From the IMG/VR virus record IMGVR_UViG_2939162341_000002: DNA of 37,948 nt. One strand, given 5' to 3'. Shown in pieces: positions 1 to 37,948 of this stretch; position 1 is the stretch's first letter; each line of letters starts with the position of its first letter. The notes under the pieces were generated by a model that made no database searches, was not told the DNA's origin, and worked only from the letters and a program-made list of their open reading frames with translations. This stretch comes from a virus. Lineage: Duplodnaviria > Heunggongvirae > Uroviricota > Caudoviricetes. The translations under genes were made by a program, and so were the position numbers.

Positions 1-19
1 CTATTTGATAAATATTAAA

Positions 20-1315
20 TTAATTTTTCATTGCTTCGTTATGGGGCATGGTTGGGGCAAACTCGCTTAACTGTGTATTTAACAAAGCTACCTGTGCATT
101 ATTGTTTTCAGACATCCATTTTCCGTATACCTGAAATACCATTTGCGCATCTGCATGGCCCATCTGGTTTGCTATAAATGCCGGGTTAGCACCAGCTGTC
201 AGCGACCAGCAGGCATAAGTATGTCTCGACTGATATGATTTTCGATGGCGGAGTCCGGCACGTTTTATCGCTGCGTCCCACATCTGCCTTATTGAGTCAA
301 CGGTAAAATGGTCACCATAATTTTTTACTCTCGCTGACACTTCAGGTTGAAAAACAAAGGTGCATTTTTGTTTTTCTGTTCTGCCATACTCTCTGAGGTG
401 AACATCAATGATATGCTCTTTGCTCAGTCTCGTTAATGTCATCTGACTCCGGAGAGCGTCGATTGCTGGCTTAATAAGATGAATGACCCGATTGGTTCCC
501 GCCTGTGTTTTTGGTACCGTGAAACGGTCTTTTGCTAAATTTCTCCTGATCATCATTGTTCCATTTTTCAGATCTATGTCCTCCCATCCAAGTGCACACA
601 GCTCACCAGGGCGAACGCCAGTATAAACAGAAACACACCATAAATTTTTTGCTTGCTGATTTCTGCATGCATCGATAAGACGGATAAATTCCTCCCGCGA
701 AAGAGGATCCGGAATGGTTCTTGATTCCTTTAATGGCGAGATCCCCTTAAACGGATTATCTGCCAGGTAACCGTTATCAACACCAAACTGGAACACGGCG
801 TTAAGATTTGTCATGTAATTATTTACAGTTACAGCCGATCTCCCTGGTTGTGTAACAATATAGTTACTTTTGGGGATCTGGTATCCAGTCAGTAGCTCTT
901 TACGAACCTCCAGTAATTTTTCTTTATTAATCGATGAGGCAAGATTTTTTTCACCGATTATGCTCAGGATATTTTTGATGACGGCACGGTATGTGTTGAG
1001 TGATGTTTTGGAGACTTCAGTTTCTTTCAGTGCCAGAAATTTTTCAGCCAGTTCTTTTATGGTTAAATCTTGTCGGGCCTCACCAAATTTTTCCAGATTG
1101 CGTGAGGAGGGAAACTGTTTTGCATAGTCGAAAACACCAGTTTTTATTGCGTAACAAACAGAGGAGCGTAGTTCACCTGCAACGCGCCTGTTTTTTGCTG
1201 TGTCAGGAACCCCCAGATTTTCCCTGACTCTTACGCCTTTATAAACAAACCAGATACGTAATTTCCCTCCATGGTTTTCCACGCCTGTCGGATATTTCAT
1301 TTCAACTTCTCTCAT
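20..1315 (-). CDS. int: Phage integrase, tyrosine recombinase (lambda Int family)
   Basis: 431-aa ORF; C-terminal catalytic region with R...H..R..Y pattern (RHTYACWSLTAGANPAFIANQMGHADAQMVFQVYGKW); sits at prophage edge reading outward, next to an excisionase-like gene. Native start may be the internal MKYPTG. Confidence 0.9.
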   Translation of the reverse strand: MREVEMKYPTGVENHGGKLRIWFVYKGVRVRENLGVPDTAKNRRVAGELRSSVCYAIKTGVFDYAKQFPSSRNLEKFGEARQDLTIKELAEKFLALKETEVSKTSLNTYRAVIKNILSIIGEKNLASSINKEKLLEVRKELLTGYQIPKSNYIVTQPGRSAVTVNNYMTNLNAVFQFGVDNGYLADNPFKGISPLKESRTIPDPLSREEFIRLIDACRNQQAKNLWCVSVYTGVRPGELCALGWEDIDLKNGTMMIRRNLAKDRFTVPKTQAGTNRVIHLIKPAIDALRSQMTLTRLSKEHIIDVHLREYGRTEKQKCTFVFQPEVSARVKNYGDHFTVDSIRQMWDAAIKRAGLRHRKSYQSRHTYACWSLTAGANPAFIANQMGHADAQMVFQVYGKWMSENNNAQVALLNTQLSEFAPTMPHNEAMKN

Positions 1316-1334
1316 TAGTTAGTGTGGCTTTTAG

Positions 1335-1586
1335 TCAAGTAAGATGACGTCTTGGTCTCGCTGATGCCTGGCGCTCAATCCAGCGATCAATTTCTTCCAG
1401 GTTGTAAAAGCATGGACTGTTATCCCATGGCATACCGTCATGAGCGACATGCTTATATTCCCTTCCTTCCATAAACGATTTTTCCCGGGCCTTTTTTAAC
1501 GTACCTTTTTTTATTCCTTTCAGCGCAATTAACTGCTCTTCGGATACCCATTTGCCGGGAGAGACAATCATGATTACTTCGCTCAT
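1335..1586 (-). CDS. xis: Excisionase-like DNA-binding protein (Xis)
   Basis: 83-aa ORF immediately upstream of int on the same strand; shares the GREY segment with lambda Xis as I recall it; small basic protein in the canonical int-xis arrangement. Confidence 0.7.
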   Translation of the reverse strand: MSEVIMIVSPGKWVSEEQLIALKGIKKGTLKKAREKSFMEGREYKHVAHDGMPWDNSPCFYNLEEIDRWIERQASARPRRHLT

Positions 1587-1658
1587 CGATTTCTTTATCT
1601 CTTACATCAGACGAGCGCCGGTTGCAGAATACCAGTCACAACCGGCGACAGTTGAACA

Positions 1659-3587
1659 TTAAGAATCAGCCTGACTCGGGATCAGTTTTTGCCAGATAAC
1701 TGAAACGTATTTTGCCTGGTAACGGGCGTCATCAAGTGCATTATGGCGCTCACCTTCGAATGGAATAGCCGTTCTGGCATCGAAGTCTATGGCTTTCCCC
1801 AGCTCAACGATTGTGCGTACATCGCGATCGTTGTAGTAACGCCACGGGCAGGGGATCCCCTGCCGTTCGTATGAACGGCGCAAAATCGTGTTGTCGAAGT
1901 TGGCTCCATTTCCCCAAACCTGAACAAAAAATTCACCGGAGTTTTCGTCGATAAATTCCCGCAATTGTAACAGTGCATCATCTAACGGGATTTCATCGGT
2001 CATAATGGCAGATTGCGATTCGCGTGATTGCTTAAGCCACCATTTAATGGTGTCCCGATCAATGACTCCGCCAGCAGTTTCCAGATCGATAGTCTTACTA
2101 AATTCCGGTCCCATATCTCCGGTTTGCGGATCGAAAAATATTGCACCTATTGAGATGATCGGGGCATCAGGATTTTTTCCCATGGTTTCAAGGTCGATCA
2201 TTAGATGGTCACACGTCCTGCTGGTGGATGTGATTTCGTGATGACCGTTCACCTTAATTGGGTGATCTGCCGTCTCGCCAGTTTCATTATCGCTATTGTG
2301 ATGCTGATTGCCGCCAGTGTTCTCCTTGTGTGGATGTTCAGCGCCTTCCATTTCCTCCGGATCATCTTCCTGAACTTCAACCTGATACTCTTCATCGAAT
2401 GTTTCTTGGTATGTTGCGTCGCCCATCACCGCGCCACAATCAGGGCAGTTGCCGCCGCCGGTCTGACCGCAGGCGGTGCAGGCTTTTTCCACTTCCTGGT
2501 GCGCCACTGGTTCAGGCTGTTTCGTTTCTGGCTCGTTTTGTAACGCATTTGGACTGTTTTGTTCCGCTTTTTGGTAGTTCCGTTCCGATTCATGCTGGTT
2601 CTGGTTCACAGAATCGCGGGTCTGGATCCCCTTAACCCATTTCGGATCATTCGGGTCACTAATCCCTTCAACAAATTCACCACGTGATGCAGCAAGCAAC
2701 TTATCGGCGTCAGGCTGGCTGATATTGGCTGCCTGCATAATTTTGTTTACTTCGTCAGCGGTAACTTTTATCGGCTCTGGTTGTTCTGAATCTTCAGCGG
2801 TATCTACATTTTGCGGTAAGCCCGTGTATGTGCCATTTTTTCGGGCAAAATATTCTTCTTTTGTGATTTCAGTGGCGCCAGCAGCCAGTGCCTTATCCAG
2901 ACCAGAAAGTTTGTTTGCGCGACCGTATTTTTCTCCGTCCTTATCTGCGAAGAGGAAATAGAACGGCCCCTCACGCTCTACAGATGGTTCAGCTTCCGGC
3001 GCGGTTTCATTTTTTGGGATATCAGATACCTCAGTTTCCACTGCATCAGTTTGTGTTTCTGATGACTGGAGAACATCAACAGTGCCCAGGTCTGTTTCTT
3101 CATTCTCAAACACGCCCTTTGTCGTCAGGTATTCGCAGATATATTTGTTCAGTGCTACGGGATCTTTGTGAATGTCGATCGGACGCTCACGGACAAGGCC
3201 AAAAATAGTTTGGCGGTCGTAGCGAAGGGCATCAGGCTGTTTGCGCATTGATGCCGAGATACGCTTCCAGTCTTCGCGGTCGTTGTCGATAACTTCTTTT
3301 TTTGCCCAGCGATGGATGCTGCCGTCAATGTTTCCGGCATCCACATCACCAGGCCAGAGAGCGTAGGCCAGTTCGTCATCCAGTGTTTTCCATGTCTGCT
3401 TGTATTCGCGATGAATGGCAGCAATGACCGGGCTGATTTTTCCTGTTGAATTTTCAGTGTACTGTTGATTGGCTCTGGCGCGGGCGAGATCAACAACAGA
3501 CGTGTATTTTCCGGTTTCCTTGCGTTCACCTTCGCGACGTTTTTTCCAGATGCGCATCTCTGCCTGAATTTCGGGTGATGCTGCCAA
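1659..3587 (-). CDS. Prophage exonuclease with C-terminal DnaQ-like 3'-5' exonuclease (DEDDh) domain; 5' end runs into IS1, so likely truncated or promoter-less
   Basis: C-terminal region has DEDDh-type motifs (MIDLETMG, NGANFDNTILRR, HNALDDARYQAKY); central CxxC...CxxC zinc-ribbon (CTACGQTGGGNCPDCGAV). The ORF-finder start (TTG) lies inside the IS1 terminal repeat, so the native 5' end is lost or displaced. Confidence 0.75.
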   Translation of the reverse strand: MAASPEIQAEMRIWKKRREGERKETGKYTSVVDLARARANQQYTENSTGKISPVIAAIHREYKQTWKTLDDELAYALWPGDVDAGNIDGSIHRWAKKEVIDNDREDWKRISASMRKQPDALRYDRQTIFGLVRERPIDIHKDPVALNKYICEYLTTKGVFENEETDLGTVDVLQSSETQTDAVETEVSDIPKNETAPEAEPSVEREGPFYFLFADKDGEKYGRANKLSGLDKALAAGATEITKEEYFARKNGTYTGLPQNVDTAEDSEQPEPIKVTADEVNKIMQAANISQPDADKLLAASRGEFVEGISDPNDPKWVKGIQTRDSVNQNQHESERNYQKAEQNSPNALQNEPETKQPEPVAHQEVEKACTACGQTGGGNCPDCGAVMGDATYQETFDEEYQVEVQEDDPEEMEGAEHPHKENTGGNQHHNSDNETGETADHPIKVNGHHEITSTSRTCDHLMIDLETMGKNPDAPIISIGAIFFDPQTGDMGPEFSKTIDLETAGGVIDRDTIKWWLKQSRESQSAIMTDEIPLDDALLQLREFIDENSGEFFVQVWGNGANFDNTILRRSYERQGIPCPWRYYNDRDVRTIVELGKAIDFDARTAIPFEGERHNALDDARYQAKYVSVIWQKLIPSQADS

Positions 3588-3628
3588 CTTACTGATTTAG
3601 TGTATGATGGTGTTTTTGAGGTGCTCCA

Positions 3629-3904
3629 GTGGCTTCTGTTTCTATCAGCTGTCCCTCCTGTTCAGCTACTGACGGGGTGGTGCGTAACGGCAAAAGCACC
3701 GCCGGACATCAGCGCTATCTCTGCTCTCACTGCCGTAAAACATGGCAACTGCAGTTCACTTACACCGCTTCTCAACCCGGTACGCACCAGAAAATCATTG
3801 ATATGGCCATGAATGGCGTTGGATGCCGGGCAACTGCCCGCATTATGGGCGTTGGCCTCAACACGATTTTACGTCACTTAAAAAACTCAGGCCGCAGTCG
3901 GTAA
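3629..3904 (+). CDS. insA: IS1 InsA
   Basis: 91-aa ORF with Cys-rich N-terminus ([28 protein letters not shown]), recognised as IS1 InsA from memory. Confidence 0.93.
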
Positions 3905-4326
3905 CCTCGCGCATACAACCGGGCAGCGATGTGATTGTCTGCGCTGAAATGGACGAACAGTGGGGCTACGTAGGTGCTAAATCACGTCAGCGCTGGCTGT
4001 TTTACGCGTATGACAGGATACGGAGGACGGTTGTGGCGCACGTCTTCGGTGAACGCACTCTGGCCACACTGGAGCGTCTTATGAGCCTGCTGTCGGCCTT
4101 TGACGTGGTGATATGGATGACGGATGGCTGGCCGCTGTATGAATCCCGCCTGAAGGGAAAGCTGCACGTAATCAGCAAGCGTTACACTCAGCGCATTGAG
4201 CGACATAATCTGAATCTGAGACAACATCTGGCAAGGCTGGGACGGAAGTCACTGTCGTTCTCAAAATCGGTGGAGCTGCATGACAAAGTCATCGGGCATT
4301 ATCTGAACATAAAACACTATCAGTAA
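3823..4326 (+). CDS. insB: IS1 InsB (transposase, made as InsAB' by -1 frameshift)
   Basis: 167-aa ORF overlapping the insA 3' end in the -1 frame, characteristic of IS1. Confidence 0.93.
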
Positions 4327-4387
4327 GTTGGAGTCATTACCGAATCGCAACGTAGTTATTATCATATAACAGCTTGTTTCCTGATTT

Positions 4388-4417
4388 AGCCAGCCTCCCC
4401 AAAGGCTGGTTTTTTTC
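4388..4417 (+). terminator. Rho-independent terminator (hairpin plus T7 run)
   Basis: AGCCAGCCT-CCCCAAA-AGGCTGG followed by TTTTTTT, directly right of IS1. Confidence 0.6.
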
Positions 4418-10770: not shown

Positions 10771-11172
10771 TCTGTTTATAGCATTAGCATCAATTTCTCA
10801 TCAGATGCTATTCAACAATACAAATTACCCATAAACCTCGTTTTTACGGGGTTTTGTTATATTTAAACATTACCGAATAGGTATAAATCTCGATTGTCGA
10901 TGGTATTGGTTGTGTGACAATACCTAGTCTTTTCGGTATGCCTGAAGAGAATACAAACGACAGATTATGTAAGGGAAACGCGCTGAATCTTTCACTCTTT
11001 CATGCTGAGTGATTTGACGTTATATTTTTAGCCGTAAGTGAAGAGCAAACGCATGGAGCGACAAAATGCATAAAGATCAATACACTGATGCCCCCTCCCA
11101 GGAGCAGGTTCGTGTAAAAACTATGCTTAATAGCACCATTTCTGATCCTACCCACGTAATATGGACACAGGC

Positions 11173-12039
11173 CTAAGCGAGGTTCTTGTTTTCAAATTGT
11201 TCCGGACTGAGGCCGCCACACCAACTGTGCCGCCGCCACCGATTGTAATCACATTCGATATAATTAAACACCGTTGCCCGCATTATTTCCCGGCTGATAA
11301 AGTGTTCTCCATGGATACATTCCACTTTCAGCGAATGAAAGAAGCTTTCCACGCAGGCATTATCGTAGCAGCAACCTTTTGCGCTCATACTTCCACGCAG
11401 ATTATGCCGCTTCAGTTGCGCCTGATAATCTGCTGAACAGTACTGGCCTCCACGGTCCGTGTGAACGATAACGTTCCGGGGCCTCTTACGCCGCCACAGC
11501 GCCATCTGCAGGGCATCGCAGGCCAGTTGCGCCGTCATGCGTGGCGACATTGACCAGCCAATAACGGCACGTGACCACAGGTCAATGACCACTGCCAGAT
11601 ACAGCCAGCCTTCATCTGTACGTAAGTACGTGATGTCTCCTGCCCACTTCTGGTTCGGGCCACTGGCGTAAAAATCCTGCTCCAACAGATTTTCTGACAC
11701 AGGCAGGCCGTGTGCGCGGTAGCTGACCGGGCTGAACTTCCGGGAGGCCTTTGCCCTCAGTCCCTGACGGCGCAGGCTTGCCGCCACGGTTTTTACGTTA
11801 AAGGGGTAACCCTGAGCACGCAGTTCATCCGTCAGGCGTGGGGAACCGTAACGCTGTTTTGACCGGGTAAAAGCCGCGAGGACAACGCTGTCGCAGTGTT
11901 GGCGGAACTGCTGACGCGTGCTTATCCTTGTCCGCCGCTGACACCACGTATACCAGCCGCTGCGGGCCACCCGGAGCACGCGGCACATTGCTTTGATGCT
12001 GAACTCAGCCTGATGTTTTTCAATAAAGACATACTTCAT
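11173..12039 (-). CDS. insF: IS3 transposase OrfB (InsF, DDE integrase domain)
   Basis: 288-aa ORF recognised as IS3 InsF; overlaps orfA in the -1 frame as in IS3-family frameshift fusions. Confidence 0.93.
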
Positions 12040-12344
12040 TTCAGGCGCTTCGCGAAGTATGTCGCGGCCTTTTGGAGGATAGCCAGCTCTTCATCCCGTT
12101 CTGCCAGCTGGCGTTTGAGACGTGCAATCTCGGTAGACATCTCCAGTTCACGTTCAGAAGACGTCTGCTGATTTTGCTGTTTACTGCGCCAGTTGTAGAG
12201 TTGTGATTCATACAGGCTGAGTTCACGGGCTGCGGCAGTAACACCGATGCGTTCAGCAAGCTTCAGGGCTTCACTGCGAAATTCAGGCGAATGCTGTTTA
12301 CGGGGTTTTTTACTGGTTGATACTGTTTTTGTCATGTGAGTCAC
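12036..12344 (-). CDS. insE: IS3 transposase OrfA (InsE, HTH)
   Basis: ~100-aa ORF recognised as IS3 InsE ([32 protein letters not shown]...). Confidence 0.93.
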
Positions 12345-12401
12345 CTCTGACTGAGAGTTTACTCACTTAGCCGCGTGTCCACTATTGCTGGGTAAGATCA
12401 A

Positions 12402-12584
12402 AAGGCTGTCGTCCAGGTTCTGGAGACAATTCCGGATGTTCTTGAACGCGATTGCGCCCTGACTCCTCAGGCCGTTGGCGTTGTACAGCAGGCCATTGAT
12501 GACCTGCGATACACTCTTCAGGAAAAATCCTACGAGGCTTGTGCTGCTGAATTAATTCCTGATGAGGAAGGAGAGAGTCTCTAG
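12402..12584 (+). pseudogene. 3' remnant of the terminase small subunit gene, truncated by IS3
   Basis: Open frame starts exactly at the IS3 boundary with no start codon and ends in a TAATG stop/start overlap with the large terminase ATG, the usual small/large terminase coupling. Confidence 0.6.
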
Positions 12585-12592
12585 GAGGAATA

Positions 12593-14692
12593 ATGGGTTT
12601 TTCATCAGCCCGAAATTTGGGAAGGGACATATCGGCAGGATTTTCCCCACCACGTCGCATGCCGATTTCGGAGGCTGTTAAAAAATTCATGCGTGTTCCC
12701 AAGGGGGCTGGTAACTCGGTGCCATGGGATCCTGAACTGACACCCTACATCATTGAGCCCATGAACTGCCTGGCATCGCGTGAATACGATGCGGTGATTT
12801 TTGTTGGTCCTGCGCGAACAGGGAAGACCATTGGTCTGATCGATGGATGGATTGTCTATACCATCGTTTGCGATCCTTCGGACATGCTCGTTGTGCAGAT
12901 GACCGAAGATAAGGCCCGCGAGCATTCAAAAAAGCGCCTCGACAGAACGTTCAGAAGCAGTGCGGCGGTAAAGAAAAGAATGAGTCCACGTCGTAATGAC
13001 AATAATGTCCATGATAAGACGTTCAGGGATGGCTCGTTCCTTAAAATTGGTTGGCCCTCGGTCAACATTATGTCGTCGTCGGATTACCGGTTTGTCGCCT
13101 TAACCGATTACGACCGTTTTCCGGAGAATATCGACAGCGAGGGTGATGGTTTCTCCCTGGCCTCAAAACGTACCACCACATTTATGTCCGCCGGGATGAC
13201 TCTGGTGGAGAGCTCGCCGGGACGTGACATCTGCGACAGCAAATGGCGACGTAAGTCGCCTCATGAAGCGCCACCGACGACTGGTATTCTTTCCCTTTAC
13301 AATCGTGGTGACCGCCGCCGCTGGTACTGGCCATGTCCGCACTGCGGTGAATATTTTCAGCCAGCCATGGATGCCATGACCGGCTACCGTAATGAACCGG
13401 ATCCCTTTAAAGCCAGTGAGGCGGCGTATCTACTTTGCCCGCACTGCAGCGGCATTATCACTGCGGAGAAAAAGCGTGAGCTCAATAGTGCAGGAGTCTG
13501 GTTGCGTGAAGGTCAGGTCATTGATTGTAACGGCAACGTTTCCGGTGAACCGCGCCGCTCCCGTATCGCCAGTTTCTGGATGGAAGGGCCAGCTGCTGCG
13601 TATCAGACCTGGGCGCAACTGGTTTACAAATTACTGACTGCAGAACAGGAGTATGAAGCGACAGGAAGTGAAGAAACACTCAGGGCGGTTATCAACACCG
13701 ACTGGGGATTACCTTATCTTCCCCGCGCCAGCATGGAGCAACGAAAAAGTGAACTGCTTGAGCAGCGGGCAGAGCCAGTTCCTTCCCGCAGTGTGCCAGA
13801 TGGCGTTAATTTTCTTGTGGCGACAGTGGATGTGCAGGCGGGACGTCACCGCCGTTTTGTGGTTCAGGTAACGGGCTATGGCAGCCGTGGCGAACGCTGG
13901 ATTATTGATCGTTACAACATCACGCAGTCATTGCGCGGTGACAGCGACGGGGAGAGCCAGCGAATTGATCCGGCCAGCTATCCGGAAGACTGGGATGTCC
14001 TGCTGACGGATGTTTTTCATAAAAGCTGGCCGCTGGCCTCCGATCCTTCTCAACAAATGCGACTGATGGCAATGGCGGTGGACTCCGGCGGTGAAGACGG
14101 GGTCACTGATAATGCCTATAAATTCTGGCGTCGTTGCCGTCGTGATGGCCTTGGTAAACGTATTTACCTGTTTAAGGGCGACAGCATCCGGCGCGCAAAA
14201 CTGATCACCCGTACATTCCCTGATAACACCGGACGAACGGGCCGACGGGCGCAGGCCGCAGGTGATGTGCCGCTCTGGCTTCTTCAGACGGATGCACTGA
14301 AAGACCGGGTGAATAACGCGTTATGGCGTGACTCGCCAGGTCCCGGCTATGTGCATTTCCCTGACTGGCTGGGGAGCTGGTTTTACGACGAACTGACGTA
14401 TGAAGAGCGGAGCAGTGACGGGAAATGGAGTAAGCCGGGTCGCGGTGCCAACGAAGCTTTTGACCTGATGGTGTATGCCGAGGCTCTGGTCATTCTGCAT
14501 GGATACGAAAAGATCCGCTGGCCGGATGCACCGGAGTGGGCGAGCCGGGAAACCTGGCTGGAGTGTGTCCCGGACAGTACCGAACCGTCATCCTCACCGG
14601 AACCGGTATCCACGCCTGTTAAAAAACAAAAACGGAAGAAAACAGTAACTGACGATGTTAACCCCTGGCTGACTTCCGGAGGATGGTTATGA
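12593..14692 (+). CDS. Terminase large subunit (GpA family)
   Basis: 699 aa; Walker A (VGPARTGKT); zinc-finger-like CPHCGEYFQ...CPHCSG resembling lambda gpA as recalled; followed by W-like and portal genes. Confidence 0.9.
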   Translation: MGFSSARNLGRDISAGFSPPRRMPISEAVKKFMRVPKGAGNSVPWDPELTPYIIEPMNCLASREYDAVIFVGPARTGKTIGLIDGWIVYTIVCDPSDMLVVQMTEDKAREHSKKRLDRTFRSSAAVKKRMSPRRNDNNVHDKTFRDGSFLKIGWPSVNIMSSSDYRFVALTDYDRFPENIDSEGDGFSLASKRTTTFMSAGMTLVESSPGRDICDSKWRRKSPHEAPPTTGILSLYNRGDRRRWYWPCPHCGEYFQPAMDAMTGYRNEPDPFKASEAAYLLCPHCSGIITAEKKRELNSAGVWLREGQVIDCNGNVSGEPRRSRIASFWMEGPAAAYQTWAQLVYKLLTAEQEYEATGSEETLRAVINTDWGLPYLPRASMEQRKSELLEQRAEPVPSRSVPDGVNFLVATVDVQAGRHRRFVVQVTGYGSRGERWIIDRYNITQSLRGDSDGESQRIDPASYPEDWDVLLTDVFHKSWPLASDPSQQMRLMAMAVDSGGEDGVTDNAYKFWRRCRRDGLGKRIYLFKGDSIRRAKLITRTFPDNTGRTGRRAQAAGDVPLWLLQTDALKDRVNNALWRDSPGPGYVHFPDWLGSWFYDELTYEERSSDGKWSKPGRGANEAFDLMVYAEALVILHGYEKIRWPDAPEWASRETWLECVPDSTEPSSSPEPVSTPVKKQKRKKTVTDDVNPWLTSGGWL

Positions 14693-14901
14693 ACCAGAAT
14701 GATATCGAAGCCATGATTCAGCGTTATACGGAAGCTGAAATGGCGGTGCTGGACGGAAAATCCGTCACCTTTAATGGTCAGCAGATGACCATGGAAAACT
14801 TATCTGAGATCCGGCAGGGACGGCAGGAGTGGGAGCGCCGCCTTGCGGCTCTGATTACACGACGACGGGGGCATCCCGGGTATCGGCTGGCGAGGTTCTG
14901 A
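14689..14901 (+). CDS. Head-tail joining protein (lambda gpW-like)
   Basis: ~70 aa; ATGA overlap with the terminase stop; RBS GGAGGA; position between terminase and portal as in lambda. Confidence 0.7.
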   Translation: MNQNDIEAMIQRYTEAEMAVLDGKSVTFNGQQMTMENLSEIRQGRQEWERRLAALITRRRGHPGYRLARF

Positions 14902-34467: not shown

Positions 34468-34640
34468 TATCCTTCAAGCCCTGAAGGAGGCTGTTCCTGG
34501 TACGTTCAGACTGTTGTTGAGCTGGAAATCGCAACGGAGGAAGAAACTTCGTTGCTGGAAGTCTGGAAAAAGTATCGGGTGTTGCTGAACCGTGTTAATA
34601 CATCAGTAGTACCGGATATTGAATGGCCAGCACTGCCGTA
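34468..34640 (+). pseudogene. Remnant of a tail fibre assembly gene (tfa C-terminus), in frame directly after the stf stop
   Basis: Translation ...[39 protein letters not shown] matches the conserved Tfa C-terminus as recalled; no start codon or RBS of its own. Confidence 0.7.
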
Positions 34641-34738: not shown

Positions 34739-35329
34739 TTATATGTCAGGTGTCTGAAGTTTTGCTTTGGCTCTTAAAATGGTTTGCCGCGAGGTTTTGA
34801 ATTCCCGGGCAATGGCACTTATACTTACACCTGACTTAATTCGTTCGAATACCACCTGTTTCTGTTCTTCATTTAACACAGGTGGTCGACCAAAACGTTT
34901 CCCTGCGCCGCGGGCTCTTACTATCCCGGAATGAGTGCGTTCAAGTAAAAGGTCTCGTTCAAATTCAGCGACTGCTGAAATTACTTGCATCATCATTTTT
35001 CCTGTTGGACTGGTCAGGTCAATGCCACCCAATGCTAAGCAATGCACTCTGATACCTGTTTCGGTCAGTTGTTCCACTGTTTTCCTGATATCCATTGCAT
35101 TACAACCAAGGCGATCCAGTTTTGTCACAATCAATTGATCACCACATTTCAGGCGAGCAAGCAACCGGTTAAAACCAGGACGCTCACTGGTTGCTGCTGA
35201 GCCGCTAATGTGTTCTTCGATTATTTGCTGAGGTTTGATTTTAAAACCTGCACTTTCGATTTCCCGGCGTTGATTTTCGGTGGTCTGATCCAGCGTTGAT
35301 ATCCGACAGTAAGCAAAAATTCGAGACAT
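34739..35329 (-). CDS. Serine recombinase (resolvase/invertase family)
   Basis: 196 aa; N-terminal catalytic motif (YCRISTLDQ with Ser nucleophile, KLDRLG); C-terminal HTH ([20 protein letters not shown]); occupies the Pin-invertase position next to the tail-fibre genes. Confidence 0.88.
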
Positions 35330-35645
35330 AGTGAGACTCTATACGAAATTGGTGTTCATATCATAATGCATCTCAGAAAATAATTATGATTATTTTTGTG
35401 CATATTTGTATGTACACGTTCGAAAATAAACGAATGCGTATGCAACCCCGTAATTTTGGTGAGACCCAAAATCGATTTTGTGAAAAATGGCTTTAACTCG
35501 GTTTGTTTTTCGAGTTCCGGGCGGACTCAAGGAAGAAGAATAGTGTTGCGTGTTATTTTAACCAGATTTCAAGTTGTTTGGTCGTGGAAAAGTGGAGCAA
35601 AATGTTGTTAAAGTGGAAAAATGATAAAAAAGTAAGTTTATTATA

Positions 35646-35879
35646 TTACATTTTACCATTTAAATTTTGGTTGTCTTTAAGAACTGATATCGCTGTTTGT
35701 AATAATTCTTTGTTATCCAGCCATGATTTTTTCTTTATGTTTCCTTCAATGTAATCAAGCAATGTTCTGGTATTGATAGGTCTTCCCTGTTTTGCTACTT
35801 CCACTACAGCATCCCCTAGGATAATTCTTACTTCAGGAAGCTGCGCAGGGAACCACTTTAGGGTGTCTTTTGATTTCAT
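35646..35879 (-). CDS. ydfK: YdfK/YnaE-family small protein
   Basis: 77 aa from the ATG with RBS AAGGA (MKSKDTLKWFPAQLPEVRIILGDAVVEVAKQG...); matches my recollection of K-12 YdfK; the ORF extends 11 codons upstream without an RBS. Confidence 0.7.
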   Translation of the reverse strand: MKSKDTLKWFPAQLPEVRIILGDAVVEVAKQGRPINTRTLLDYIEGNIKKKSWLDNKELLQTAISVLKDNQNLNGKM

Positions 35880-36664
35880 GAAGATATTCCTTAAAATATT
35901 ATTGATTTTCATTGCGATATTGTATGTCTGATTCAGGATATGTTGACTTATACATCGGTTTTGTCTGGGTTATTGGATATGCCAATCCCTAATTTTATTA
36001 GGGCATGACTAAAAATGCTGAATATGATAAGGAGAGATGTGATTATCAGTATGCTGTTCATATAGCCTCGAATTAGTAATGTGTTATATATGATATAGTT
36101 GACAATTTTTATCTTGGGTGTTCTTAAAGTTCGTAGATAAACATTGTCGTTTCAGGTATACAGGAATGCTAACAGGTGGCAGCAAAAATCAGGCGGTTTA
36201 TGGCGCAAGCTGAAGCGGCAACTGCAAACTATCTTATGCAGAGACTCTACACGGATTGGGTTTAAAAGTATACATAGATAACAGTTTTTATCTGAAAAAG
36301 AAAAATATCAAGGTGATATAGCCTATATGCCTTTGATGCGGAGGAATGAATGTGATGGGAGTGATGTATCTGAATAGTTGAAAAACCGCAGACACGCCTT
36401 ATGCAAGAACGTGCTGCGGTTGGCTGGTAAATTTTTCGATAGTGTGAGTATTGAATGATTTCCAGCCGTTCTTGATTTTACGCATAAATCCATGAAAAAA
36501 CTACTTATCTGTTGGGGAGTTTTTTTGGGGCATATATGGGACAGAAATAGGCCCCAGATAGACACTGAGATCGAACTTAGGATGCTTTTTAAAAAATGCA
36601 ACTATCTGAAAAAACCTAGAAAACGCCAAGGAAACCACAGGATGGGAAAAAACACCTGTGAATT

Positions 36665-37948
36665 ATGGATTTCCAGTTATATTCGCTCGGCGCAGCGTTA
36701 GTGTTTCATGAAATATTTTTTCCTGAATCATCAACGGCAATGGCGTTAATTCTGGCAATGGGAACCTACGGTGCAGGTTATGTGGCGCGTATTGTCGGAG
36801 CATTTATTTTCGGCAAAATGGGCGACAGAATAGGGCGTAAAAAAGTGCTCTTTATTACCATCACCATGATGGGGATCTGTACCACCTTAATTGGTGTGTT
36901 ACCGACCTATGCACAGATTGGTGTTTTTGCACCCATCTTGCTGGTGACGTTGCGTATTATTCAGGGGTTGGGTGCAGGTGCGGAAATTTCCGGTGCCGGT
37001 ACGATGCTGGCGGAATATGCGCCAAAAGGTAAGCGCGGAATTATCTCCTCATTTGTGGCTATGGGAACTAACTGCGGAACCTTGAGCGCAACGGCAATCT
37101 GGGCCTTTATGTTCTTCATTCTCAGTAAAGAGGAACTGCTGGCGTGGGGATGGCGTATACCGTTCCTGGCGAGCGTTGTCGTGATGGTCTTTGCTATCTG
37201 GTTGCGTATGAATCTGAAAGAAAGCCCGGTCTTTGAGAAGGTTAACGACAGTAACCAACCGACAGCAAAACCTGCACCTGCTGGTAGCATGTTCCAGAGC
37301 AAATCCTTCTGGCTGGCAACAGGGCTGCGTTTTGGTCAGGCGGGTAACTCCGGGTTAATTCAGACTTTCCTTGCAGGCTATTTAGTGCAGACGTTATTGT
37401 TTAACAAAGCAATTCCAACAGATGCATTGATGATCAGTTCGATTCTCGGCTTTATGACCATTCCGTTCCTTGGTTGGTTATCCGATAAAATTGGTCGCCG
37501 GATCCCGTATATTATTATGAATACCTCCGCGATTGTGCTGGCATGGCCAATGCTTTCTATCATTGTAGATAAAAGCTATGCCCCGAGCACCATTATGGTT
37601 GCACTGATTGTGATTCATAACTGTGCGGTGCTGGGATTATTTGCTCTGGAAAACATTACCATGGCAGAAATGTTCGGCTGTAAAAACCGCTTTACCCGGA
37701 TGGCTATTTCTAAAGAAATTGGTGGTCTTATCGCTTCCGGTTTTGGTCCTATCCTGGCGGGTATTTTCTGCACCATGACGGAATCCTGGTATCCGATCGC
37801 CATTATGATCATGGCATATTCAGTGATTGGTTTAATCTCTGCGCTGAAAATGCCAGAGGTGAAAGACCGTGATTTAAGTGCGCTGGAAGACGCTGCGGAA
37901 GATCAACCGCGTGTTGTAAGAGCTGCGCAACCTTCCAGAAGTCTGTAA
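36665..37948 (+). CDS. ydfJ: MFS metabolite:H+ symporter (YdfJ-like), N-terminally truncated host gene at the prophage junction
   Basis: 427 aa with MFS motifs (GKMGDRIGRKK, multiple TM segments); begins mid-way through the first transmembrane helix with no RBS, consistent with a lost 5' end; runs to the window end. Confidence 0.85.
   Translation: MDFQLYSLGAALVFHEIFFPESSTAMALILAMGTYGAGYVARIVGAFIFGKMGDRIGRKKVLFITITMMGICTTLIGVLPTYAQIGVFAPILLVTLRIIQGLGAGAEISGAGTMLAEYAPKGKRGIISSFVAMGTNCGTLSATAIWAFMFFILSKEELLAWGWRIPFLASVVVMVFAIWLRMNLKESPVFEKVNDSNQPTAKPAPAGSMFQSKSFWLATGLRFGQAGNSGLIQTFLAGYLVQTLLFNKAIPTDALMISSILGFMTIPFLGWLSDKIGRRIPYIIMNTSAIVLAWPMLSIIVDKSYAPSTIMVALIVIHNCAVLGLFALENITMAEMFGCKNRFTRMAISKEIGGLIASGFGPILAGIFCTMTESWYPIAIMIMAYSVIGLISALKMPEVKDRDLSALEDAAEDQPRVVRAAQPSRSL

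Follow-up and report, generated by a model that had tools for sequence, protein, structure and literature searches.

Organization of the right end of a prophage integrated into the 5' end of ydfJ

Genes and signals between the prophage and ydfJ

The window analyzed here is a stretch of 37,948 nt of Caudoviricetes DNA (IMG/VR record IMGVR_UViG_2939162341_000002), and the interval of interest, 35913..36700, lies toward its right edge, where truncated ydfJ begins (Table 1). A preliminary description had portrayed this interval as an AT-rich junction that lacks any credible open reading frame (ORF). It is indeed AT-rich, with a GC content of 37.9% compared to 49.2% in the whole window. The second part of the statement holds for most ORFs of the interval, which are not conserved, but not for ynfT on the minus strand. 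Its product matches PF23676 over the full length (positions 1-37 of 37; 96.2 bits), and the identical YnfT peptide, which is the same as YnaM/"YnfQ", has been detected in K-12 by epitope tagging (PMC6001520). That the interval encodes additional proteins, e.g. ORFs annotated in phage HannyBb, the 69-aa ORF at 36492..36701 (plus strand) or the 92-aa ORF at 36323..36601 (minus strand), is very improbable. These ORFs exist mechanically and several are labelled as hypothetical proteins in HannyBb; however, 1-nt indels in close relatives shift the frame of both the 92-aa and the 69-aa ORF (an additional A at 36597 in K-12 and a 1-nt deletion near 36519 in the BKQWHE type, each of which falls inside both ORFs), the 92-aa ORF would start with TTG, the DNA is conserved here as blocks without a codon pattern, and neither PGAP nor the K-12 curators annotate the additional ORFs.

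Upstream of ynfT, a predicted sigma-70-type sequence, which overlaps the first copy of a repeat discussed below, is the likely promoter of ynfT-ydfK. Genomic-SELEX in K-12 placed RNA polymerase peaks at ~36235 and ~36336 (our own coordinate conversion), and promoter-like matches in the region are no commoner than in shuffled sequences. The hexamers printed as the "ydfK promoter" in the RpoD SELEX paper map to 37067..37040, i.e. inside ydfJ, and were therefore disregarded. The ynfT leader, in which a K-12 RNA 3' end has been mapped, was also considered as a structured RNA or thermosensor. This candidate was rejected, the leader fold being no better than those of shuffled sequences (z = -0.9). 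No match to the cspA-type cold-shock 5' UTR (Rfam thermoregulator) was found at E <= 1 in 35000..37200.

To the right of the interval, the MFS ORF begins at 36665 without a ribosome binding site, as had been noted: its ATG corresponds to codon 29 of full-length ydfJ (455 aa), and a Shine-Dalgarno sequence cannot be seen upstream of it. At the opposite edge of the window, int encodes a tyrosine integrase in which the N-terminal arm-DNA-binding domain is separate from the recombinase domain, and the excisionase gene is the next ORF. No tRNA or tmRNA gene that could serve as an integration target is present in the window.

Table 1. Coordinates of the features discussed, in window numbering
Feature	Position	Strand	Description and basis
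Tyrosine integrase (int)	20..1315	-	431 aa; PF12167 Arm-DNA-bind_2, 82.9 bits; PF00589, 66.2 bits
Excisionase (xis)	1335..1586	-	PF06806, 108 bits; excisionase family protein in HUE1 annotation
IHF-consensus site, window part (H'-like)	1..10	-	full site TATCAAATAGTTA, starts 3 bp outside window
P'-arm pair, candidate arm-type Int sites	42..59	+	TGGGGCATGGTTGGGGCA; 11-bp spacing; about +65/+76 from core centre
ydfK	35646..35879	-	77 aa, annotated cold shock protein; called by PGAP and in K-12 on identical DNA
ynfT	35948..36061	-	37-aa hydrophobic small protein (YnaM/YnfT family); PGAP, K-12 annotation, PF23676
RNA 3' end in ynfT leader	36207	-	mapped in K-12 (1632744 +); Term-seq, Adams et al. 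2021, PMC7815308
Predicted ynfT-ydfK promoter	36267..36296	-	sigma-70-type, TTCAGA-18-TATACT; consensus 9/12
TATCTGAAAAA copy 1	36289..36299	+	reverse complement supplies predicted -35 hexamer; no att role
Hairpin (36384..36421), U5 tract and RNA 3' ends	36377..36421	-	int/ydfK-sense strand
Spacer, hairpin to P arm	36422..36520		~82% to phiP27; in BKQWHE-type prophages, absent from Stx2a-type phages
P arm of attP	~36521..36662	+	alignments with diverged phages
P-arm pair, candidate arm-type Int sites	36526..36543	+	TGGGGCATATATGGGACA; about -142/-131 from core centre
Best-conserved internal P-arm block	36590..36625	+	AAAAAATGCAACTATCTGAAAAAACCTAGAAAACGC; alignment of 15 diverged P arms
TATCTGAAAAA copy 2	36603..36613		inside conserved P-arm block 36590..36625
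Common core (attR copy)	36663..36673	+	TTATGGATTTC; 11 bp, overlaps ydfJ codons 28-31 and ydfJ ATG
Truncated ydfJ	36665..37948	+	427/455 codons; PGAP pseudogene flag
attB			...GAATTTATGGATTTCCAGTTAT..., expected after excision; empty-site junction expected to read ...GAATTTATGGATTTCCAG...
Circular attP			...GTGAATTATGGATTTCAAGAGTC..., expected after excision

Integration site and arms of attP

The prophage sits in the 5' end of ydfJ, and the attR junction lies inside the interval. The core and the junctions were defined by alignment to an uninterrupted ydfJ, a check that the preliminary description had itself proposed. In this comparison of the empty ydfJ locus (attB; L003), the left junction (attL; L005), the window (attR) and the free phages mEp460 and HannyBb (attP; L007, L008), the sequence TTATGGATTTC is identical in all four types of site while the flanks are reciprocally exchanged, as required by the Campbell model. 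The attL copy of the core is located 19-29 bp beyond the left window edge. The joined form of attP can be read directly in mEp460_ev081 and HannyBb, and these two phages together with Tritos and PhiR42_1 share the region at 98-99.7% identity. DNA from 35913 to 36662 is entirely phage DNA and is contiguous with int in the free phage genomes. Thus, the expectation that the attachment site and the missing 5' end of ydfJ would map to the interval and beyond the left edge was correct for attR, which is inside the interval, and for the ydfJ 5' end, which is beyond the left edge, but there is no ydfJ sequence within 35913..36662. The first 28 codons of ydfJ and its promoter remain at attL, a short distance beyond the left window edge, where the remnant has been described as the small protein YnfP (PMC6001520). 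An insertion into the 5' end of ydfJ that costs the gene 28 codons has already been published (PMC6379469), and in the K-12 annotation the Qin feature ends at the base equivalent to the TTATGGATTTC boundary. An inspection by eye only for core-type Int half-sites around the core showed a CTTGAA/TTCCAG dyad in attB, the spacing of which is off by 1 nt in attP; we make no claim of such sites.

The direct repeat TATCTGAAAAA had been put forward as weak evidence for the att core. Two copies exist, although the coordinates originally given (36282..36292 and 36604..36614) were off by 7 and 1 bp. The proposal that this repeat, with a degenerate copy at positions 1..19 of the window, is the att core or marks attL and attR is almost certainly wrong. 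In its favor are the two occurrences of the 11-mer in the window and a loose match of 12 of 14 positions between AACTATCTGAAAAA (36599..36612) and AACTATTTGATAAA at the left edge. By contrast, the alignment of attB, attP, attL and attR places the crossover at TTATGGATTTC, by which the proposal was already refuted, and both exact copies are located in phage DNA on one side of the core. Moreover, a direct repeat of at least 11 nt arose in 12.7% of first-order Markov simulations of a 788-nt sequence of the same composition, and the repeat is therefore not beyond chance. Similarly, 12-mer pairs with two mismatches are no commoner than in the null, and the resemblance of positions 1..19, which read CTATTTGATAAATATTAAA and represent phage P'-arm DNA without a core, does not exceed the background of such pairs. 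The two loosely similar stretches coincide with the P'-side IHF consensus and the conserved P-arm block described below.

The extent of the P arm follows from diverged Stx2a-type phages with the same core, in which similarity to the window begins at ~36521 and the DNA upstream of this point has no relation to it. Each arm of attP contains a pair of TGGGRCA motifs that we suggest as candidate arm-type Int sites, distinct from the core; the P'-arm pair falls within the 3' codons of int. The pattern TGGGRCANNNNTGGGRCA (TGGGRCA-N4-TGGGRCA) matches only these two places in the 38-kb window, with 0.07 matches expected for a pattern that was derived from the same sequences on which it was scored. In every attP-bearing locus, the P and P' pairs are exactly 207 bp apart and no further match to the pattern is present. 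The TGGGGCATATATGGGACA block is invariant among relatives found by BLAST, including phiP27, while its invariance in the IMG/VR set arises because the block was the search pattern. When repeated 9- to 12-mers were searched for blindly in the reconstructed attP, they were no more numerous than under the Markov null; the arm sites are therefore not callable in this way and emerged only from the cross-phage alignment. As an arm code, the TGGGRCA pairs may be common to integrases of different core specificity, i.e. those of Qin/mEp460 and phiP27 as well as one or more other core types. In the literature searched, we found no earlier description of the P arm and its candidate arm-type Int sites.

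Two further sites may bind accessory factors. The best-conserved block inside the P arm contains the second repeat copy together with a weak IHF-like match, and its position and conservation make it a candidate site for IHF and/or Xis. On the P' side, TAA joined to window positions 1..10 (L005 3498-3500 plus window 1-10) gives TATCAAATAGTTA when reverse-complemented; in mEp460 attP, this is a perfect IHF consensus, located 16 bp from the core, and the only match to WATCAANNNNTTR in 5.7 kb, and IHF may bind here. In strain HUE1, which matches the window exactly at the left end, the annotation describes the prophage as decayed, with IS1 and IS3 insertions, internal stops and no genes for immunity or replication. 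It may therefore be that the att machinery is never active here.

A minus-strand terminator

The hairpin and its U tract are an intrinsic (Rho-independent) terminator on the minus strand. The hairpin folds with -20.7 kcal/mol (z = -3.0), UUUUUC follows directly, and the K-12 Term-seq 3' ends 1632571/1632574 (+) (Adams et al. 2021, PMC7815308, supplementary file 1) correspond to 36380/36377 after transfer to the window by our own sequence match and coordinate conversion. The preliminary description had allowed for small RNAs or regulatory sites in the interval and suggested a search for transcription. The first of these points is supported by the published K-12 3' ends that map here, by ynfT and by reported Hfq-bound ydfK leader fragments. 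Among variants of the hairpin, compensatory and wobble-preserving changes keep the pairing of the minus-strand RNA; a stem pair is broken in three rare variants, and copies of the BKQWHE type are without the U tract. A simple terminator scan did not flag the hairpin at 36384..36421. Rfam yielded only sub-threshold matches, i.e. one meaningless miRNA match and CssrB (RF02799; 25.3 bits in the window and 28-31 in related loci versus a gathering score of 76). The CssrB match was rejected; it is weak, hairpin-driven and on the plus strand, while the mapped 3' ends and the wobble-preserving changes favor the opposite strand.

In the circular phage, ~290 nt separate the terminator from the int stop codon upstream of it, with attP in between, and this position suggests a role toward int similar to that of lambda tI. 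Alternatively, the hairpin could end a separate, possibly Hfq-binding sRNA that starts at 36425..36560 (minus strand) in or near the P arm or spacer and corresponds to the reported "ydfK/ynaE 5' leader" RNAs; it would then not chiefly be a terminator for int or read-through transcripts. We consider this somewhat unlikely. The "orphan" Term-seq 3' ends are found at the hairpin in K-12 although int is not upstream there, short ydfK/ynaE leader RNAs have been reported, "5' UTR-ydfK" and "ttcC-ynaE" RNAs reportedly co-immunoprecipitate with Hfq, and a stem-loop with a U tail is the usual Hfq-binding module. Also, a second stem (GGCUGG...CCAGCC) precedes the hairpin and the spacer is conserved with phiP27. 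However, a consensus scan of the minus strand upstream of the hairpin revealed no promoter-like site, a short leader RNA that starts at the predicted promoter accounts at least equally well for the second mapped 3' end (36207), and Term-seq reads at the hairpin are few (~2,000-3,300), known sRNAs reaching 10^5-10^6 in that table.

A retroregulator of the lambda sib type, in which anti-terminated early-left read-through would lengthen the stem to form an RNase III site and destabilize int mRNA in the free phage while integration would part the hairpin from int, is quite unlikely. The hairpin shares with lambda tI/sib its int-sense orientation and its place on the other side of attP, immediately past the P arm, and its structure is kept with compensatory changes even in the BKQWHE type, from which the U tract is gone. 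Against this, a 221-nt fold around the terminator gives long-range pairing only, with no contiguous perfect extension of the stem, and the hairpin is missing from Stx2a-type phages that share the core, where dinI adjoins the P arm. In strain D5, the hairpin is directly 3' of a minus-strand methyltransferase gene. The same hairpin after an unrelated gene suits a generic terminator rather than a sib-type element.

Relation to known prophages and proposed organization

The closest known systems include the right end of the cryptic Qin prophage in E. coli K-12 (ydfJ'-ynfT-ydfK-pinQ; feature 1632277..1652745), in which insertion point, gene order and core are all the same; over 35880..36700, it differs from the window by three substitutions and one indel. 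The prophage in the window is larger (~36.7 kb, with int and xis intact and a full set of head and tail genes) than K-12 Qin, which is 20.5 kb with intQ disrupted. The junction is present at >=80% coverage in ~2000 of 5426 complete E. coli genomes. The right end of Rac (pinR-ynaE-ynaM-ttcC) shares the cargo unit and the hairpin with the window, at 98-99% identity as far as window position 36423, and its small protein is identical in sequence; past the hairpin, the P arm, the core and the target gene (ttcA) differ. In the Stx2e phage phiP27, which has an annotated 11-bp attL/attR, Int is 60% identical with a well conserved arm domain, and the hairpin type, the spacer, the TGGGGCATATATGGGACA block and TGGGRCA pairs on both arms (P' equivalent at L135 76-93) are shared. 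However, phiP27 has two pairs in the P arm, which is wholly diverged from the arm sites to the core, and its core, CACGCAGTTAA, is different; its chromosomal target is therefore different as well.

The layout also resembles lambda attP in its short common core, its long P arm carrying candidate arm-type sites at ~-140/-130 (lambda P1, -148..-129), candidate P' sites that overlap the 3' end of int, a putative IHF-type site beside the core on the P' side, and a hairpin with a U tract on the int-sense strand just past the P arm, as in tI/sib. By contrast, there is no sequence similarity to lambda. Int is only 21% identical over 105 residues and has another Pfam arm domain (PF12167), the arm motif is TGGGRCA in pairs with 11-bp spacing, the core measures 11 bp as opposed to 15 bp in lambda, and the distance between the terminator and the arm sites is ~100 bp larger.

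Based on these comparisons, we suggest, with a probability of roughly 0.88, that the interval is the right (attR) end of a lambdoid Qin/mEp460-type prophage that has integrated site-specifically into codons 28-31 of ydfJ. In this model, reading leftward from ydfJ, the 11-bp crossover core TTATGGATTTC would be followed by a ~140-bp attP P arm, on which the N-terminal arm domain of the integrase is expected at the two 11-bp-spaced TGGGRCA sites (36526..36543), while host bending factors and Xis probably occupy the conserved block at 36590..36625. Further to the left, a ~100-bp spacer would lead to the minus-strand intrinsic terminator, which in the circular phage, ~290 nt past int across attP, would be in the lambda tI/sib position and would also guard the next unit against incoming transcription. 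That unit, furthest to the left, would be independently transcribed cargo (a "moron") consisting of promoter, leader, ynfT and ydfK. Integration would split ydfJ, with 28 codons and the promoter left at attL as the YnfP remnant.

This is an ordinary, known prophage end. The insertion in ydfJ, the boundary base, ynfT and YnfP are already on record in the K-12 annotation, in a comparative paper from 2019 and in surveys of small proteins, and the significance of the locus is small beyond bookkeeping. The present analysis adds the base-precise att core of the window, a comparative definition of the P arm with candidate arm-type Int sites, and the link between the "orphan" K-12 RNA 3' ends and a conserved prophage-end terminator. 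We speculate that two more far-reaching ideas may hold jointly, which as a whole is doubtful: the hairpin would be more than a terminator (the 3' end of an Hfq-associated sRNA expressed in the lysogen, or an integration-dependent sib-like switch), and the code of TGGGRCA pairs would represent natural att retargeting by swaps restricted to the core-proximal P arm. The conserved hairpin module is found in a large share of E. coli genomes, namely those with this prophage end. More immediately, the details reported here could serve the engineering of mEp460/Qin-type integrases or the annotation of prophage borders.

The prophage-host junction in ydfJ

An uninterrupted ydfJ locus, HUE1, free phages and the four att sites together support the general idea in the preliminary description that prophage and host meet at ydfJ; however, the core differs from the one suggested there, and 35913..36662 is phage DNA throughout. 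When the window was aligned, as that description had proposed, with the uninterrupted rspB-ydfJ (455 aa)-ydfI locus of strain Ec-050-T5-ESBL, it matched only from ~36663 rightwards. The left junction was taken from strain HUE1, the DNA of which is identical to window 1..1800; here, phage DNA takes over from ydfJ codons 1-31 at a point 19 bp left of window position 1. Window 35913..36673 is present at 98-99.7% identity in four sequenced phages (mEp460_ev081, HannyBb, Tritos and PhiR42_1). Directly after this stretch, mEp460_ev081 and HannyBb, the two phages read in detail, carry the sequence preceding window position 1, with int coming next. Compared side by side, attB, attL, attR and attP have in common the exact sequence TTATGGATTTC, the flanks of which are swapped among the sites in keeping with the Campbell model. 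The ATG at the start of the truncated ydfJ is Met29 of YdfJ, and the K-12 feature "cryptic prophage Qin" begins at the equivalent of base 36673. Published work describes integration in the 5' end of ydfJ, which costs the gene 28 codons and its promoter (PMC6379469).

By contrast, the direct repeat TATCTGAAAAA, previously proposed as the att core, is not the core. It does occur twice, with true positions (36289..36299 and 36603..36613) that differ from those first reported, and a direct repeat of at least 11 nt turns up in 12.7% of composition-matched simulations. Its loose resemblance to the left edge is not statistically distinguishable from background, and may be explained by the location of copy 2 within the best-conserved internal block of the P arm (phage DNA left of the core). 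The interval is indeed AT-rich (GC 37.9% vs 49.2% across the window), but the claim that it lacks a credible ORF does not hold because it contains ynfT, the 37-aa product of which is a full-length match to Pfam PF23676. Mechanical ORFs of 92 aa (minus) and 69 aa (plus) were rejected, as single-base indels disrupt them in K-12 and BKQWHE-type relatives. The original finding thus recognised a well-known prophage-host junction correctly, but imprecisely.

[quoted passage not shown] A 1.3-kb probe across the junction (>=80% coverage) found it in ~2000 of 5426 complete E. coli genomes, and the differences between window and K-12 over 35880..36700 amount to three substitutions and one indel in an A run.

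At attL, left of window position 1 (L005, the left-junction locus, 3390..3500), the ydfJ remnant runs through the core into phage DNA (...EFMDFKSHAC-stop). This remnant, MTIEKHERSTKDLVKAAVSGWLGTALEFMDFKSHAC, is catalogued in K-12 as the 36-aa small protein YnfP, the C-terminal FKSHAC of which agrees with the attL reading; the prophage junction has therefore created a translated mini-ORF.

The HUE1 prophage has a decayed look (window ~1659..4400, ~11000..14700): its exonuclease gene is split by IS1, an IS3 element lies ahead of the terminase gene, and terminase and a C40 peptidase contain internal stops. Its annotation lists no repressor or replication genes, and it differs from the window by ~308 bp somewhere between both ends. 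Between pinQ and the tail fibre gene, the window retains just a 126-bp C-terminal fragment of a tail fibre assembly gene (34500..34620), which suggests partial deletion of the Pin-invertible segment. In related prophages, tfa genes adjoining pin contain Rfam "IS009" matches of 172-227 bits, and this "RNA family" appears to be tfa coding sequence.

Coordinates of features in the window and, where a locus is named, in related loci
Feature	Coordinates	Strand	Basis or description
Integrase gene	20..1315	minus	tyrosine integrase
P'-arm pair TGGGGCATGGTTGGGGCA	42..59		last codons of int; arranged as the P-arm pair
pinQ	34739..35329	minus	PGAP annotation of identical DNA, K-12 MG1655
ydfK	35646..35879	minus	PGAP annotation of identical DNA, K-12 MG1655
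ynfT	35948..36061	minus	PGAP annotation of identical DNA, K-12 MG1655
Hairpin	36421..36384	minus	bulged stem-loop, -20.7 kcal/mol, z = -3.0, then UUUUUC
P-arm pair TGGGGCATATATGGGACA	36526..36543		first conserved element; two TGGGRCA units, 11 bp apart
Best-conserved internal P-arm block	36590..36625		includes copy 2 of TATCTGAAAAA
attR core	36663..36673		four-way att comparison
Truncated ydfJ (MFS transporter ORF)	36665..37948		PGAP annotation of identical DNA, K-12 MG1655
Rfam "IS009" matches	L132 755..953; L133 1310..1508; L002 2302..2500; L006 4845..5001		within tfa

The ynfT-ydfK unit and the hairpin

The ynfT product is identical to a K-12 protein detected by chromosomal tagging and named YnaM and "YnfQ" (PMC6001520). 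Because prophages share the ynfT-ydfK unit as one block that extends to the hairpin, the promoter of the unit is expected within 36062-36383. The sole minus-strand consensus match there is TTCAGA-18-TATACT (36296..36267), in a region where promoter-like matches are not more numerous than in shuffles. Genomic-SELEX places RNA polymerase holoenzyme peaks in the K-12 "ydfI/ydfK spacer", which by our own conversion, using a 1976-bp shift between genome versions, correspond to ~36235 and ~36336. A further Term-seq 3' end lies at 36207 (Adams et al. 2021, PMC7815308), and published work reports short leader transcripts of ydfK and ynaE that co-immunoprecipitate with Hfq. Neither a significant fold nor a cspA-type Rfam match was found in the ynfT-ydfK leader. 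The HUE1 prophage (L136 9535..10595) carries several cargo genes with cold-shock labels (cspI, ymcF, ynfN and gnsB), suggesting that these and ydfK are accumulated cold-related morons.

Two K-12 Term-seq 3' ends classified as "orphan" (1632571 and 1632574, plus strand; Adams et al. 2021, supplementary file 1) have a printed flanking sequence that is the hairpin, and their window equivalents are 36380 and 36377 on the minus strand. The two K-12 stem substitutions give G.U pairs in a minus-strand RNA but A.C mismatches in a plus-strand RNA, copies of the BKQWHE and phiP27 types have double compensatory changes, and in strain D5 the hairpin is directly 3' of a minus-strand methyltransferase gene. 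Module boundaries also fall here: Rac-type and other prophages have ydfK-ynfT-hairpin in common with the window up to 36423/36437, while phiP27 and BKQWHE-type phages have hairpin, spacer and arm sites in common with it. We conclude that the hairpin acts as an intrinsic terminator of int-sense transcription and at the same time insulates the cargo unit. In a circular phage of the window type, it would lie on the far side of attP, ~290 nt downstream of int. The lambda tI/sib hairpin is at -149..-197, adjoining P1; a sib-like RNase III role, though conceivable, found no support. An Rfam CssrB match was rejected, being below threshold and on the opposite strand. In BKQWHE-type hairpins (L002 ~4000..4040 and 15 IMG/VR loci), compensatory changes keep the stem while the U tract is absent, and selection there may thus be for something other than intrinsic termination.

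Candidate integrase sites in the attP arms

The core-adjacent region is 74-92% identical to the window in other ydfJ prophages. In the Stx2a-type class, similarity starts abruptly at ~36521, and the DNA upstream is unrelated, with dinI in its place. The pattern TGGGRCANNNNTGGGRCA has just two matches in the 38-kb window, the P-arm and P'-arm pairs, vs 0.07 expected. In every fetched intact-attP locus, both TGGGRCA pairs are on one strand, at a distance of exactly 207 bp. The phiP27 integrase is 60% identical to that of the window, with an especially conserved arm domain, and phiP27 has two TGGGRCA pairs in the P arm and one in the P' arm at similar core distances, while its annotated core, CACGCAGTTAA, is unlike that of the window. 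In our translation, the amino acids encoded by the P'-arm motif differ (APTMPH vs VPMMSH in phiP27), whereas the DNA motif is retained. Based on the conserved pairs, their spacing, the Arm-DNA-bind_2 domain of the window's integrase and the phiP27 parallels, this comparison suggests that the pairs, at about -142/-131 and +65/+76, are candidate arm-type Int sites. A caveat to this reading is that in the IMG/VR set the invariance of the P-arm block is built in, since the block served as search pattern. In lambda, the P' sites likewise overlap the int 3' end. A perfect match to the IHF consensus TATCAAATAGTTA/G, the only one within 5.7 kb of mEp460, lies 16 bp right of the core and overlaps part of window 1..10.

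In Stx2a-type P arms (L095, L117, L023 and others), the pair is preceded, 11 bp upstream, by a further TGGGGCA unit, so that three arm-type units stand in tandem (ATGGGGCACCTTGGGGCATATATGGGACA). In three IMG/VR loci (L116, L120 and L080), the 18-bp arm block is followed by wholly different sequence without the ydfJ core, implying that at least a third core or target type uses this arm motif.

Overall, the interval is a compact row of ordinary lambdoid elements: a cargo gene with its leader, a terminator, the P arm and the core. Its novelty is low; what the analysis adds, modestly, is a candidate arm-site code and a connection to orphan RNA 3' ends.
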